Below are positions 17,075-26,244 of a stretch of DNA of 64,000 nucleotides, in pieces. The notes under the pieces were generated by a model. That model worked only from the letters and a program-made list of their open reading frames with translations, searched no databases and was not told where the DNA came from. Source of the stretch: Coleofasciculus chthonoplastes F2-STO-03. Lineage in GTDB: Bacteria; Cyanobacteriota; Cyanobacteriia; Cyanobacteriales; Coleofasciculaceae. Within the stretch, counting starts at the first letter, position 1, and each line of letters opens with the position of its first letter. The stretch is taken from positions 1 through 64,000 of the forward strand of contig JAVJWO010000179.1 in the NCBI GenBank assembly GCA_040222015.1. The letters are read 5' to 3'. Made by a program: the position numbers and the translations under genes.

Positions 17075-18691
17075 TTATGACTTCACCGCCACTTTTCCAT
17101 TTGGGCTATCTTGCAGTAGCGCCAGATACTCATCCCGGAAATAGCGCAGCGTACTCATGACGGGATTCGGTGCAGTTTGACCCAAACCGCACAAGCTGGT
17201 GTCTTTCACCATGCCACAGAGCTGTTCGAGTTGTTCGATATCCCTCATCGTGGCTTCTCCCTTGAGGATCTTGGTCAGCGCTTGGTACATTTGCACTGTT
17301 CCGACCCGACAGGGGATGCATTTGCCGCAGGTTTCTCCCCGACAGAATTCCATGTAGAACTGGGCAACTTCAATCATGCTGGTAGTTTCATCCATCACCA
17401 CCATGCCGCCAGAACCCATCATCGAGCCGATTGTAACCAGTGAGTCGTAGTCTACTGTGGTATCGAGTAGGGATGCGGGGATACAACCGCCAGACGGTCC
17501 CCCCGTTTGCACCGCCTTCACCTCACCATCTGGTACACCGCCGCCCATTTCTTCGACAATTTCGCGTAGGGTAATACCCATTGGCACTTCAATTAAACCA
17601 TTGTTGCGGATTTTACCCGTTAGAGCGAACACTTTTGTCCCTTTGCTCTTTTCGGTGCCGATATTGGCGTACCATTCGGCTCCTTCGCGAATGATGACGG
17701 CAATATTGGCAAAGGTTTCAACATTATTAATTAAAGTAGGACATCCCCATAAGCCCGATTGTGCGGGGTAGGGGGGACGGGGGCGGGGTAAACCTCGTCC
17801 GCCTTCTACGGAGGCAATCAGGGCTGTTTCTTCACCGCAGACAAAAGCACCTGCACCGATGCGGATATCAACTTTGAAGTCAAAGGGAGAGCCGAAGATT
17901 TGACTACCTAGAAGGCTGAGCCTTTTGGCTTGCTTGATTGCCTTTTGCAGGCGATCGATCGCGAGGGGATATTCCGCCCGAACATAGATGAACGCTTGTG
18001 TCGCACCAACCGCATATCCGGCGATCGCCATTCCTTCTAAAACCCGATGGGGGTCACTCTCTAACACCGAGCGATCCATGAACGCACCGGGATCACCCTC
18101 ATCCGCATTACAGATCACATATTTTTGCTCCCCAGGCATCTTCGCCATGGTTGCCCATTTCAATCCTGTGGGATAACCGCCGCCACCGCGTCCGCGCAAC
18201 CCACTCTTGCTGATTTGATCGACAACCTCCGCCGGGGTCATATCATGAATAACTTTATACAGGGATTGATATCCCCCAGCCGCAATATATTCTTCAATCC
18301 GTTCCGGGTCAATTTTGCCACTGGTTTCCCGGACGATTCGCACTTGGCGAGCAAAAAAGGGGTGATTCAGATCGCCCTCATCCGCCGTGGCTGTCCCGCC
18401 GTTAAGGGATTCAATAATACTGGCAGCATCATCGGGAGTCACTTCCTCGTATAGTTTGTCCTGGGGATCGATTTCCACCAAAGGACCTCGCCCGCAGAAC
18501 CCCATACACCCCACACCGACGACTTGCACGCGATCGCCTAAATCTGCTGCTTTAACCGCTCCTTCTAAATTTTTCTTTACACCCAAGGAATTCGCCGCTT
18601 GGCAACCTGTTGACGTACAACAATGTACGCGGATGCTTTTTTGCGCCTGACGTTCTGCTTCAGCAATTTCTTGCAGTTCCGTTAAATCCAT
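17075..18691 (-). CDS. hoxF: Diaphorase FMN/NADH subunit
   Basis: [38 protein letters not shown]. Confidence 0.97.
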
Positions 18692-18706
18692 AATTTTCTC
18701 TCCTCA

Positions 18707-19157
18707 TCAGTGGTGGAATAAACCCATCCGCAAAAACTTTATCCTTACCTAGTAAAACGTTCAGTTTATAGACTTTAGTCTACCTTCAATTTCCTAGGTT
18801 TTATCCTAGACATACTCTATTTTTCGAGGTATAACTAAATTCTACAGCACCTGGAAAACTTGGTCTATGGGGTCAGGGTAGGAAAAGCTCGGACGGGTAA
18901 AAACCCAAAGCTTCATGGAACAGTTTTCGACCCAAATAGCGGTGAAAAACCCGCACGGTCTTTAATGAACTGTGAGATGCAATTAAGCGCAATGTATGTG
19001 ACTTTATGTCAGCATATCTGAGCGTATAGGGGGTCTTTGACTGCTCCCACTGGTAAGATAGTCCAGTGACAGCCTGTAGTTGTGAAGTAGTGCGGTTTTA
19101 ACCCGCTACGAAACAACTGCTTAGAATCCCGCGTACTTTAGTCGCGGGAGAAGTCAA
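18707..19157 (+). mobile_element. ORF-less IS200/IS605-derived element between hoxF and hoxE
   Basis: Right end AGAAT-CCCGCG TACTTTAGT CGCGGG-AGAAG-TCAA (to 19157). The left boundary is uncertain; TCAGTGGTGGAAT near 18707 may be half of a left-end hairpin. Confidence 0.7.
18807..18859 (+). promoter_or_regulatory. Sigma70-like promoter followed by a BoxA-like motif
   Basis: TAGACA(18807-18812)-17 bp-TATAAC(18830-18835); GCACCTGGAAAAC (18847-18859) resembles cyanobacterial rrn BoxA GAACCTTGAAAAC. Confidence 0.55.
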
Positions 19158-19177
19158 TCCATCCATCCCTTCACCTT
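18842..19177 (+). ncRNA. Candidate standalone TnpB-type omega/reRNA with a 3' guide derived from hoxE
   Basis: Many hairpins between the promoter and the IS605 right end; no TnpB coding remnant recognisable. Confidence 0.5.
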
Positions 19178-19693
19178 CTCCAGTGCCAATTCTGCGGTTT
19201 GTTTCGGCGCAACTGTGCCATCAAACACTACGGCTGGGGCGATACCGCAGGCACCGAGACAACGGGCGCTGAGCAAGGACATTTCGCCATCAGGGGTGGT
19301 GTCACCTACTTGGATGCCAAAATGCTCCTCTAGTGCCGATAGCACTTGTCCACCACCTTTGACGTAACAAGCCGTACCCGTACAAACCACACAAGTATGA
19401 GTGCCACCGGGCTTCAGGGAGAATAGGTGATAAAATGTCGCCACCCCATACACCCGACTCAGGGGCAGTTTTAGCCCTCGTGCTACATACAGCAACACAT
19501 CCTCCTCCAGATAGCCAAAGGCTTCCTGTGCCTTGTGGAGAACTTCAATCAAAACATCAGGACGATACTGAGCCCGCTTCATTGTGATATCCAGAACTTT
19601 GAAGCGCTTATCACCACTGGGATGTCCTTTCTTGGCTTCCTTCGGCTTTTTCGCCGCCGTGGTGTCTGCACGAGACGTGGGCACAGTTGCCAT
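19154..19693 (-). CDS. hoxE: Diaphorase 2Fe-2S subunit
   Basis: ATG at 19693 after AAAGGAG; VATFYHLF, CVVCTGTAC, CLGACG. Confidence 0.95.
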   Translation of the reverse strand: MATVPTSRADTTAAKKPKEAKKGHPSGDKRFKVLDITMKRAQYRPDVLIEVLHKAQEAFGYLEEDVLLYVARGLKLPLSRVYGVATFYHLFSLKPGGTHTCVVCTGTACYVKGGGQVLSALEEHFGIQVGDTTPDGEMSLLSARCLGACGIAPAVVFDGTVAPKQTAELALEKVKGWMD

Positions 19694-19754
19694 AGTTAAC
19701 TCTCCTTTATTTTGAGTATCTGTAGGGTGGGCATTTGCCCACCCCACAAAAGGT

Positions 19755-22463
19755 TTACATCGTCGGTACGGCAGGTTGGGTATCGGATTTGATATTGGTA
19801 TCACCGATCGCACCATTGCCGTTGACGGTTTCGACATCAGGAACCTCACCCAAGTCGCCGTGATAGGCTTTGGTAAGGATTTCCTTAAGATCTGCAATCA
19901 AGGGATAGCGGGGATTCGCGCCAGTACATTGATCATCGAATGCCTGATCCGCAACTTCATCCAGCTTGGCGAAGAATTCCGCTTCACTTTCCTTGATCAC
20001 ATCCTTCAGCGCCGCCGGAATCCCCACCTGACGCTTGAGTTCCTCAATTGCCCCAATCAGGTGATTGATTTTCTCGTCTTCGCTATCGCCGCCCAAGTGC
20101 AGGTAATCAGCAATCCGAGAATAGCGCCATTTGGCATTAGGATACTTGTACTGGGAGAATGTCGCCTGCTTAAAGGGCGCATCCGTGGCGTTATAGCGAA
20201 TAACATGGGAAATTAACATGGCATTCGCTAACCCGTGGGGGACATGGAAAATAGCCCCTAATTGGTGTGCCATAGAATGACAGATGCCCAGGAAACTATT
20301 GGCAAACGCCATCCCTGCCATCGTGGCGGCATAGTGCATTTTCTCCCGCGCCTTGGGATCATTTGCCCCATTTTTGTATGCCGAAGGCAAGTATTTAAAG
20401 ATTAGGCGAATTGCCTCTAGTGCCAACCCATTGGTATATTCACTAGCTAACACCGAAACATAAGCTTCTAAAGCGTGAGTCAAGGCATCGACACCCCCGA
20501 ATGCGGTGAGACTCTTGGGCATATTTAGGACTAATTCGGGGTCTACGATCGCCATATTTGGCGTCAAGGCATAGTCCGCCAAGGGATACTTAATATCATT
20601 GCGGCGATCGGTTACTACCGCAAACGGGGTAACTTCTGAACCCGTTCCCGATGTCGTGGGAATGGCTACCATCATCGCTTTCTCACCCAAGGGGGGCAGT
20701 TCATACACCCGTTTGCGGATATCCATGAACCGCATCGCTAACCCCTCAAATTCAATCTCTGGATGCTCATACATCAGCCACATAATTTTGGCAGCATCCA
20801 TGGGCGAACCCCCACCCAAGGCGATAATCACATCGGGCTTGAAGGTGTTCATCAACGTCAATCCCCGTTGTACGGTTTCTAAGGAGGGGTCTGGCTCTAC
20901 GTCATAGAAGATATCGTATTTGATCCCAATTTCAGCCAAAACCTCTTCGACGCTAGCCGTCATCCCCAGATCGTAAATGGGTTTGTCGGTGACGATAAAT
21001 GCCCGTTCTTTCCCCGCTAACTCCCGCAGGGCGATGGGCAGGGACCCATACTTAAAGTACACCTTGGGCGGTATCCGGAACCAGAGCATATTTTCCCGCC
21101 GTTCCGCGATCGTTTTTATGTTCAGCAGGTGTTCGGGTCCCACATTTTCACTGATGGAGTTCCCTCCCCAAGTACCACAACCCAGCGTCAACGAGGGATC
21201 AAGGCGGAAGTTATAGATATCCCCGATCGCACCTTGGGAGGAGGGGGTGTTAATTAAGACGCGAGACGCCTGAACTTGGTCTTCAAACCGTTTAATATGG
21301 TCAGCATTGGCTGGATTGGTGTACAGCACCGCCGTATGTCCACGTCCGCCAAATTCAACCAATTGTCCGGCTTTGTCTACCGCATCCTCAAAATCTTTAG
21401 CCCGATACATTGCCAGAACGGGGGAGAGTTTCTCGAAGGAAAAGGGTTCATCAGTGCCAATCTTTTCCACTTCGCCAATAATCACCCGGGTTTGTTCCGG
21501 TAAGGCAAATCCAGCTAATTCGGCTAACTTCTCAACAGGTTGACCGACAATTTCGGCATTTAAGCGCCCATTGACAATAATTTTACTCCCCATTTTTTCC
21601 CGTTCTTCTGGCGTCAAGAAGTAAGCGCCGCGATTAATAAATTCTTGGCGAACTTCCTCGTAAACATTATCCAAGACAATCACCGACTGCTCACTGGCGC
21701 AGATCATGCCATTGTCAAAGGTTTTACTCAGAATAATCGAAGACACCGCCATTTTAATGTGAGCGCTGGAATCAATCACCGCTGGCGTGTTTCCTGCACC
21801 AACACCGAGAGAGGGATGTCCCGAAGAATAGGCGGCTTTCACCATTCCCGGACCCCCTGTCGCCAGGATCAGCTTCACATCGGGGTGCTGCATCAAAGCT
21901 TGGGAAAGAGGCACCGTTGGTTCATCAATCCAGCCGATAATATTCTCAGGTGCGCCAGCCGCTACCGCCGCGTCTAAGACGACTTTTGCCGCTTCCAGGG
22001 TGCATTGTTTGGCACGGGGATGAGGGGAGAAAATAATCCCATTTCGGGTTTTCAGAGCAATTAATGCCTTAAAAATCGCCGTTGAGGTGGGGTTGGTGGT
22101 GGGTACTATCCCCGCTAAAATACCAACGGGTTCAGCAATTTTCTGGAAACCGAACGATTTGTCCTCTTCGACAACACCACAAGTTTTATCATGTTTGTAC
22201 TTGTTGTAGATCATTTCCGAGGCAAAGTGGTTTTTAATCACCTTATCCTCAACCACTCCCATGGCAGTTTCACTGACCGCTAATTTTGCCAAAGGAATCC
22301 GGGCTGCATTAGCCGCGAGTGCCGCTTTTTTGAAGATGGCATCGACCTGCTCTTGCGTGTAGCCAGCGTATTGGGTTTGAGCGTTTTTAACCCGTTGAAT
22401 TAATTCTTCGAGTTCCTGATGGTTTGTGACTTTGATCATGTTAGTTGCAGTAAGTCTCGTCAT
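19755..22463 (-). CDS. adhE: Bifunctional acetaldehyde-CoA/alcohol dehydrogenase
   Basis: ALDH part (TNPTST, ATGG, MICASEQ), linker GCGTWGGN, Fe-ADH part (GGGSPMDAAK, PTTSGTGSE, HSMAH, HGLAN). Confidence 0.97.
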   Translation of the reverse strand: MTRLTATNMIKVTNHQELEELIQRVKNAQTQYAGYTQEQVDAIFKKAALAANAARIPLAKLAVSETAMGVVEDKVIKNHFASEMIYNKYKHDKTCGVVEEDKSFGFQKIAEPVGILAGIVPTTNPTSTAIFKALIALKTRNGIIFSPHPRAKQCTLEAAKVVLDAAVAAGAPENIIGWIDEPTVPLSQALMQHPDVKLILATGGPGMVKAAYSSGHPSLGVGAGNTPAVIDSSAHIKMAVSSIILSKTFDNGMICASEQSVIVLDNVYEEVRQEFINRGAYFLTPEEREKMGSKIIVNGRLNAEIVGQPVEKLAELAGFALPEQTRVIIGEVEKIGTDEPFSFEKLSPVLAMYRAKDFEDAVDKAGQLVEFGGRGHTAVLYTNPANADHIKRFEDQVQASRVLINTPSSQGAIGDIYNFRLDPSLTLGCGTWGGNSISENVGPEHLLNIKTIAERRENMLWFRIPPKVYFKYGSLPIALRELAGKERAFIVTDKPIYDLGMTASVEEVLAEIGIKYDIFYDVEPDPSLETVQRGLTLMNTFKPDVIIALGGGSPMDAAKIMWLMYEHPEIEFEGLAMRFMDIRKRVYELPPLGEKAMMVAIPTTSGTGSEVTPFAVVTDRRNDIKYPLADYALTPNMAIVDPELVLNMPKSLTAFGGVDALTHALEAYVSVLASEYTNGLALEAIRLIFKYLPSAYKNGANDPKAREKMHYAATMAGMAFANSFLGICHSMAHQLGAIFHVPHGLANAMLISHVIRYNATDAPFKQATFSQYKYPNAKWRYSRIADYLHLGGDSEDEKINHLIGAIEELKRQVGIPAALKDVIKESEAEFFAKLDEVADQAFDDQCTGANPRYPLIADLKEILTKAYHGDLGEVPDVETVNGNGAIGDTNIKSDTQPAVPTM

Positions 22464-25842: not shown

Positions 25843-26244
25843 AACGTTATAGTTTGTAAAAGTATAGTCAAATATAGATAGATAGACTGAATTTCATTTC
25901 AGAAATTCCCTTCGCTTTTAAGTCTTATCCGTTTCCTCTGTATATATTAGCCAACATGACGATATCTGACTATATTCTTATTGAAACTTTACAATACTTA
26001 CTGATGTTATTTAGGATCGATGCTAGTTTTTGGTAGGCTTCCTTGGTCATGGTTGTGTTTCAACTGGCGAACAACCCTACATCAACACTTTATCGCCAGT
26101 GCCTTGACCAAGGACATAGAACAAATGACCATTTCGGGGAAATTGCGACTCAGGGGTTCGGTTCTACGACCCCGGAGAGATGACGAGAGCCAGTATCCTC
26201 ATAGATAGACAAGTAGAATTGGCTGTTCATGGGGATAGATAGCG

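Follow-up and report, generated by a model that had tools for sequence, protein, structure and literature searches.

A protein-less, probably IS608-type element with a putative omegaRNA scaffold between hoxE and hoxF of a cyanobacterium

The hox operon of the window (the whole stretch of 64,000 nucleotides analyzed; contig C179, JAVJWO010000179.1, of a 7.7-Mb genome) carries between hoxE and hoxF a discrete 409-bp insertion, window 18749-19157, located 3' of a TTAC. This insertion is very probably a non-autonomous, protein-less element of the IS200/IS605 family, of the IS608 type and PATE-like. An earlier note, made from the letters of this DNA, had described the region as a protein-less guide-RNA cassette aimed at hoxE. 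The explanation that we favor, and consider probable overall, is that of a selfish PATE-like element bearing a TnpB guide-RNA gene used in trans, its match to hoxE being incidental. The element would have inserted recently 3' of a TTAC that lay across the hoxE stop codon. Its cargo would be a guide-RNA gene in which a TnpB omegaRNA scaffold takes up the last ~140 nt and probably a total of ~230-310 nt; as this scaffold ends at the right boundary, the transcript would run into the flank and acquire TCCATCCATCCC... as its guide. TnpB from a related IS elsewhere in the genome may load this RNA in trans; its only cleavage site would be the one vacated on excision by TnpA, where the guide match comes right after TTAC, and recombination of the cut site with another chromosome copy would then restore the element. 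That the hox element is transcribed from a promoter inside it, that TnpB loads its RNA and that it homes is inferred by analogy with known systems. This kind of element is already known, since Meers et al. (10.1101/2023.03.14.532601) describe the homing logic of TnpB omegaRNAs, which take their guide from the flank, and say in their Discussion that PATEs 'often encode omegaRNAs', for which TnpB has to be supplied in trans.

Table 1. Window coordinates of the hox region and of the parts of the inserted element
Feature	Position	Strand	Description
adhE	19755-22463	-	902 aa; Aldedh and Fe-ADH domains
hoxE (maximal ORF)	19154-19897	-	PF01257, E 8e-43
hoxF	17075-18691	-	PF01512, PF10589
hoxU		-	Fer2_4, NADH-G 4Fe-4S
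hoxY		-	PF01058
hoxH		-	PF00374
TTAC target/transposon-adjacent motif, left junction	18745-18748	+	reverse complement provided the original stop codon of hoxE
Left end, non-canonical	18749-18803	+	starts CTAGTAAAACG; 5-bp hairpin TAGAC-TTTA-GTCTA at 18769-18782
Segment of ~39 nt absent from L027	18804-18842	+	holds the candidate promoter TAGACA-17-TATAAC; no other copy in the genome
boxA-like 13-mer GCACCTGGAAAAC	18847-18859	+	unpaired; opens the 5' leader module
Rest of the 5' leader module	18860-18915	+	helix 1, 18860-18866/18902-18908; helix 2, 18875-18881/18890-18896
Middle part of the RNA, GACCCAAATAGCGG...CATATCTGAGCG	18926-19017	+	conserved in 6 protein-less copies from 4 genera
Putative omegaRNA-type scaffold core	19018-19157	+	common to tnpB-linked right ends; covariation
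Right end	19125-19157	+	GAAT 19125-19128; hairpin CCCGCG-TACTTTAGT-CGCGGG 19129-19149; AGAAG; TCAA 19154-19157
Flank that would be read as guide (TCCATCC...)	19158-19177	+	antisense to the 3'-terminal codons of hoxE; guide role by analogy with TnpB omegaRNAs

Insertion at the hoxE stop codon

Open reading frames and Pfam domains define the minus-strand gene order adhE, hoxE, hoxF, hoxU, hoxY, hoxH (Table 1); the adhE-type bifunctional aldehyde/alcohol dehydrogenase gene lies directly upstream of hoxE and overlaps the longest hoxE ORF. The element lies in the 462 nt that separate the hoxE stop (19154-19156) from the hoxF start (18691); in congeners this spacer measures ~57-170 nt. The region and its flanks were compared with 41 related genomes, and both flanks were found together in four genomes of the same genus. 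The element is absent from all four, with 112 nt in its place in G002 (flank identity 99-100%), 41 nt in G005 (95-97%), 40 nt in G004 (92-95%) and 0 nt in G008 (90-94%). The window reads ...TCCTTAC/409 bp/TCCATCCATCCC..., and the unoccupied site in G002 reads ...TATTATTAC/TCCATCCATCCC..., i.e., TTAC/TCCATCC uninterrupted. The boundaries are thus directly observed from the empty sites: the feature pointed out in the earlier note is real, but it extends over 18749-19157 and not over 18707-19177. Insertion took place 3' of a fixed tetranucleotide, with neither target duplication nor terminal inverted repeats, and TTAC is also found at the left boundary of related elements, as inferred by eye. IS608 of Helicobacter pylori, which encodes both tnpA and tnpB, targets TTAC and bears a GAAT/TCAA pair at its right end; the hox element resembles it in being inserted 3' of TTAC without duplication and in its right end, where GAAT precedes a hairpin and TCAA marks the cleavage point, but encodes neither tnpA nor tnpB. 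The insertion is young, its flanks being so close to those of the unoccupied G002. Other small insertions are seen at the same spot in relatives. Loci L008 (G005) and L009 (G004) have, between hoxF and hoxE and at the same site as the element, a 40-nt insertion containing a perfect 28-nt palindrome, with a GTAG start and a CTAC end (a REP-like repeat), and the 112-nt insert of G002, at the hoxE stop region, is different. The hoxE stop region is therefore an insertion hotspot.

The insertion hit the stop codon of hoxE, and the TGA now in use comes from the terminal TCA of the element. HoxE ends in ...KVKGWMD* in the window and in ...KVKGWME* in the four relatives (4/4), whose stop codons are TAA, TAG, TAG and TGA, so that the protein cost is a conservative E-to-D exchange at the final position. 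The HoxE reading frame and the hoxF ribosome-binding region are kept despite the insertion.

In agreement with the protein-less character proposed earlier, blastx against all 14,566 genome ORFs of at least 80 aa detected in the element no similarity to TnpB or TnpA, including no remnant of a decayed tnpB, and its one ORF, of 53 aa, matches no Pfam family. Y1 transposase (19 PF01797 matches) and TnpB genes (78 PF07282 and 58 PF01385 matches) are present elsewhere in the genome as putative trans helpers. None of the 78 PF07282 and none of the 58 PF01385 matches lies on contig C179, and the TnpB or nuclease-dead TnpB evoked in the earlier note is accordingly not encoded on this contig.

The right end, its scaffold and its guide

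The core of the element (18930-19157) matched 14 of the 52 family genomes at a threshold of E <= 1e-8, and 20 loci were inspected. Eight of these (L027, L028, L029, L030, L012, L036, L017 and L031, from five other genera) are full-length elements without a protein gene, and apart from one orthologous trio no two of them have the same flank; copies with unrelated flanks, which the earlier note had suggested looking for, do exist. At three loci limited by the contig (L039, L033, L040), TnpB C-terminal coding sequence runs into the scaffold, two (L041, L035) retain only a decayed TnpB C-terminal trace of 33-41 aa, and the remaining seven are truncated fragments or contig-end pieces. The trio, L028, L029 and L030 (G061, G064 and G062), corresponds to one protein-less element found at a single locus in three species that belong to another genus. 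Its members are 88.5-95.6% identical, compared with 91-96% for their flanks, and this insertion is old, vertically inherited and diverging about as fast as its surroundings. The 5' parts of the protein-less relatives differ, each having, in a by-eye reading, its own promoter-like box: TATAGT in L028-30, TAGAAT in L031, TGTGATAAAAT in L012 and L017, and CATGATCAAAT at that position in L036. The hox copy is the only full copy in its assembly, in which two solo fragments of the same lineage were found: a left end with the canonical left-end hairpin at C206:18240-18330 (L003) and a right end with TCAG instead of TCAA at C203:1052-1097 (L002).

Every motif listed in the earlier note was found in the sequence at its place. 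On the plus strand, the hairpins GGGT/ACCC, GCGG/CCGC (twice), CACGGT/ACTGTG, CACTGG/CCAGTG and GTAGTTGT/ACAACTGC were confirmed, and the RNA 18842-19177 (+) folds with -110.3 kcal/mol, against -91.8 +/- 5.1 for shuffled sequences (z -3.62; 0/100 shuffles as good). One of them, GGGT-AAAA-ACCC, is present but not conserved, its bases forming a different, covarying helix in relatives. Sensitive blastn against the genome, followed by inspection, showed that the last ~140 nt resemble right ends of the form ...TTTGACTG...TTAGAATCC-hairpin-GGAGAAGTCAA. The arrangement GAATC-hairpin-GAAGTCAA is common to copies located directly 3' of tnpB at C30 and C210, which answers the earlier suggestion to identify TnpB genes with the same right end, and similar right ends occur at contig ends where IS copies collapsed (C213, C56, C38, C39). 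The IS608-type right end claimed for this element, GAAT-hairpin-AGAAG-TCAA, is therefore present and homologous to the right ends of tnpB elements. At C30, the tnpB ORF (432 aa; PF01385 OrfB_IS605 and PF07282 TNB domains) ends 34 nt before the right end, and the scaffold therefore overlaps the coding sequence there, a usual situation for omegaRNA scaffolds. The hox element has in common with the omegaRNA/reRNA of the tnpB-bearing C30 and C210 copies the covarying 140-nt scaffold, its end at the right boundary and the AGUCAA pseudoknot; it differs in that their scaffold overlaps the 3' coding part of tnpB, whereas its own upstream part is non-coding.

We aligned 16 right ends (10 without tnpB, 3 with tnpB, 2 remnants and C38 at a contig end), leaving out L029 and L033 as near-duplicates and, as short fragments, L023, L037, L034, L032, L038, L002 and C46. 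GAATC is invariant (16/16) and TCAA is found in 15 of the 16, while the right-end hairpin displays compensatory changes at 7 of its 9 pairs. The alignment supports six nested helices and a pseudoknot between a conserved UUGACU loop and the terminal AGUCAA (19038-19043 with 19152-19157 in the window). In this structure, 83.2% of the cells are paired, a measure that favors the window sequence from which the structure was derived, and 28 of the 42 pairs show compensatory changes; 0/500 shuffles reach any of the measures, and slid controls are 34-45% paired. An independent RNAalifold run on a wider alignment found compensatory changes at 16 of 21 pairs. Covariation among homologs, the lack of which would have spoken against a guide RNA according to the earlier note, is thus present. 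Conservation of the right-end hairpin could serve TnpA on DNA rather than an RNA; the upstream helices and the pseudoknot argue for RNA. Since this covarying fold, pseudoknot included, is common to right ends that overlap tnpB 3' ends, the last 140 nt are best read as an omegaRNA-type scaffold, as the earlier note had proposed: they are homologous to tnpB right ends and end at the transposon boundary.

The covariance model built on this alignment, R1, has 14 matches in the genome, which include the tnpB-linked ends at C30, C210, C194 and C162, several of them directly 3' of tnpB or overlapping it, as well as solo remnants at C203 and C46. All 3'-scaffold helices are intact in the hox copy, which is a training sequence of the model and obtains the top score, 154 bits. 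Further upstream, the middle part (18926-19017) is highly conserved, with too little variation and covariation to support a structure. Rfam gave only sub-threshold chance matches on the window (HgcC, 15.2 bits for a cut-off of 50) and no match on four related loci. The nearest tnpB-linked scaffold of the genome is ~64% identical to that of the hox copy, and loading by a cognate TnpB is for this reason presumptive. The most similar scaffold adjoins the C30 TnpB (L042 952-2250, G000), in which, by eye, the contexts of what we take to be the D/E/D motifs are kept and no cysteines stand at the positions presumed usual for the TnpB zinc finger; a phmmer search of this protein against PDB sequences returned 0 matches.

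The origin of the guide in the 3' flank, as put forward in the earlier note, agrees with a scaffold that ends at the boundary with the flank (19158-19177) adjoining it. Within the assembly, the sole match of a 16- or 20-nt guide is this flank itself, preceded by TCAA and not by TTAC; even when up to 3 mismatches are allowed, no matching site follows a TTAC. The only target would thus be the donor joint formed on excision, TTAC+TCCATCC..., as in G002, with TTAC+TCCATCCATCCCTTCA as the candidate vacated-site sequence. The claim that the RNA is aimed at hoxE did not survive this search: the match is a by-product of the position of the element, and because the guide is the flank by construction, it is uninformative on targeting.

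These observations also bear on the idea of a domesticated guide RNA that, loaded by TnpB or a nuclease-dead TnpB, targets the 3' end of hoxE to control the hydrogenase. Such a role would make use of the complementarity of the guide to hoxE mRNA and DNA, and TnpB-derived RNA-guided transcription factors exist (10.1101/2023.11.30.569447). We nevertheless regard it as highly improbable: any such element has its flank as guide automatically, no TTAC motif stands at the match site, the 4/4 congeners with the same operon do not have the element, which is thus no conserved part of hox regulation, contig C179 encodes neither a tnpB-like gene nor an adjacent nuclease-dead homologue, the relatives sit in unrelated flanks, and the guide is the immediate flank rather than a promoter away from the transposon boundary. 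The nuclease-dead TldR factors, as presented in that paper, likewise involve a TnpB-family guide RNA matching a host gene, but the hox element has no adjacent tnpB or tldR, a guide that is its own flank and no conservation with the operon.

A boxA-like leader in protein-less elements

The boxA-like 13-mer recognized in the earlier note proved to be part of a conserved and strongly covarying leader. A leader search matched 22 of the 52 family genomes, and as many as 16 places within a single one. Across 24 aligned copies (L047 being omitted as a near-duplicate), the 13-mer is unpaired and nearly invariant, GCACCTTGAAAAC, and the conserved leader block of 74 nt starts exactly at it. The two helices that follow are 95.8% paired, with compensatory changes at 11 of 14 pairs and 0/500 shuffles as good on four of five measures, slid controls being 14-46% paired. 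All the leader loci that were fetched (23/23) are protein-less elements ending in ...GTCAA, of ~350-480 bp and starting after TTAC or TCAT in a by-eye reading, and no TnpB match was found within 2.6 kb downstream of the leader at the 23 inspected loci. The covarying boxA-like leader, found only in protein-less elements, is the one point of this work that is possibly new; our literature searches found nothing that joins boxA with TnpB RNAs or describes the leader, and the 13-mer string only in unrelated work.

In the cyanobacterial ITS, boxA reads GAACCTTGAAAA (PMC8461337). The 13-mer matches it at 10/12 positions in the hox copy, at 11/12 in the consensus of the related copies and at 12/12 in L065; compared with GAACCTTGAAAA(C), it differs at 2 positions in the hox copy and at 1 in the family consensus. 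As second base, 22 of the 24 copies have C instead of A. The leader resembles the boxA leaders of rRNA operons and CRISPR arrays, the latter reportedly described by Stringer et al. in 2020, in that the 13-mer, itself unpaired, opens a long structured RNA that is not translated. Under the boxA idea, the leader sequence GCACCUUGAAAAC may be a putative NusB/NusE site, and an antitermination or folding role of the leader is plausible by this analogy; the invariance of the 13-mer could equally reflect protein or tertiary contacts. Pairing of the 13-mer's GAAAAC with GUUUUC was considered and rejected, the complement being found by eye in the hox copy and L045 and not in the other copies.

The exact boxA GAACCTTGAAAAC was also encountered in four CRISPR leaders of the genome (C47 62027 and 48775, C77 35464, C216 87659, all minus), where a TATAGT box precedes it by ~20 nt and the first repeat follows after ~70 nt (...ATCCCTA.TAGGGATTGAAAC), which suggests antitermination of CRISPR arrays in this cyanobacterium. 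The exact motif also precedes a tRNA in the genome, and a loose boxA pattern has 28 genome matches versus ~7 expected (our own base-frequency estimate). The boxA of the genome's rRNA was sought via a 16S 3' end motif, and no such contig was found in the assembly.

A second protein-less, IS605-like family of ~400 bp (TTAC/...GGAGTGTCAA) was identified in the same genome, G000 (loci L045-L048; copies at C216:81420-81825, C217:14212-14583, C218:37159-37428 and C130:142784-143146, and on C110 and C112). It has GCACCTTGAAAAC and the next ~60 nt in common with the hox copy, with an unrelated 3' scaffold; the element shows no blastn likeness to the tnpB-linked right ends of the genome and is absent from Rfam. 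As it is common to two families with unrelated 3' scaffolds, the leader is modular. The left flank of the second-family insertion at C216 is a ~48-nt repeat, GGGAATTTCTGAAATGAAATTCAGTCTATC...TTGACTATACTTTTAC, which is also present in the window at 25856-25903 (-), where it ends in TTAC and is unoccupied; more copies are found on C217, C108 and C14.

Condition of the hox copy and consequences for the operon

Whether the hox copy is still active is close to an even question, which we lean slightly towards answering yes. Its left end is without the canonical G+C-rich subterminal hairpin segment of ~52-56 nt seen in L027, L036, L012 and the C206 fragment, in which the canonical left end is followed by 32 nt identical to 18747-18778. 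The 5-bp hairpin of the hox copy lies 20 nt from the boundary, a spacing similar to that of the canonical hairpin (~20 nt). With a AGTAAAACG start and a hairpin of its own, the short left end is either a functional alternative or the mark of a copy truncated and fixed, and because the canonical hairpin is missing the copy may no longer be excisable. The closest relative, L027 (G056), is 84% identical in the core and does not have the region that holds the candidate promoter of the earlier note. The pair TAGACA (18807-18812) and TATAAC (18830-18835) is indeed present with its 17-nt spacer, but was not flagged by a sigma-70 scan because the second hexamer lacks the final T. The hox leader is partly decayed, with a T-to-G change in the 13-mer and 5/7 and 3/7 pairs in helices 1 and 2, against 6/7 and 7/7 pairs in L027 (own count).

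An inert relic, that is, a decaying and immobilized remnant whose fold reflects ancestry, with neither guide-RNA transcription nor excision and a 409-nt spacer left in the hoxEF transcript, would account for the non-canonical or truncated left end, the degraded leader helices and 13-mer, the lack of a consensus promoter, the presence of one full copy and, at C206 and C203, of solo pieces from its lineage, and the orthologous copies of another genus that evolve like their flanks. This explanation is rather unlikely in our estimation, although it is the most serious of the alternatives: it has to contend with a young insertion, whose flanks are 99-100% identical to unoccupied G002, with 3'-scaffold helices that are all intact and an R1 score that is the highest, albeit for a training sequence, and with a left end that retains a start motif and a hairpin at the ~20-nt spacing.

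The same insertion allele was found in RNA-library contigs of three studies, all public and unstranded. Three contigs extend over the left junction (18509-18795, 18596-18831 and 18522-18778, the last reaching 30 nt inside the element), and others lie inside the element or over the right junction (18824-19087, 18956-19179). These could be guide RNA, hox read-through or DNA carry-over. They also touch on a possible side effect on hoxEF expression that would involve no RNA-guided targeting, through the longer structured spacer or convergent antisense transcription. The lengthening of the spacer from ~57-170 to 462 nt, left-junction contigs that enter the element by only 30-83 nt from the hoxF side, and a sigma-70/terminator scan that predicted no terminator-like site on either strand are consistent with such an effect, and preservation of the hoxF ribosome-binding region and of the HoxE frame speaks against it. 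We consider it improbable as an explanation of the element.

The favored reading, a selfish PATE-like element with a guide-RNA gene used in trans, can be set beside the PATEs of Geobacillus stearothermophilus (10.1101/2023.03.14.532601). Both have IS200/IS605-type ends and no protein gene, and in PATEs, as described there, a right-end omegaRNA is used in trans by the TnpB of another IS, with mobilization by TnpA in trans. Relative to that description, the present element is cyanobacterial, its RNA is prolonged on the 5' side by a long part whose boxA-like leader is common to a second protein-less family, and the left end of the hox copy is non-canonical. Tentatively, and with more doubt than confidence, the hox copy might be a degraded representative of a class, so far undescribed, of protein-less IS200/IS605 elements abundant in this cyanobacterial family. 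Such elements would be mobile transcription units for a guide RNA alone, whose omegaRNA genes have acquired their own promoter and the 74-nt leader opening with a boxA of the rRNA/CRISPR type.

For the interpretation of such loci, the right-end guide of an IS200/IS605 element always matches its neighbor; that a guide is complementary to the gene beside it therefore says nothing in favor of regulation. For hydrogenase biology, the insertion is a natural one that leaves HoxE almost unchanged and places 409 structured nucleotides between hoxE and hoxF, and congeners without the element are ready-made controls for any effect on hox. The occurrence of the leader only in protein-less elements offers a testable answer to the question of how guide-only elements get their RNA made without a tnpB message. 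If the hox copy did belong to such a class of guide-only units, selfish guide RNAs would recruit the antitermination or RNA-folding machinery of the host after losing the translated tnpB message.
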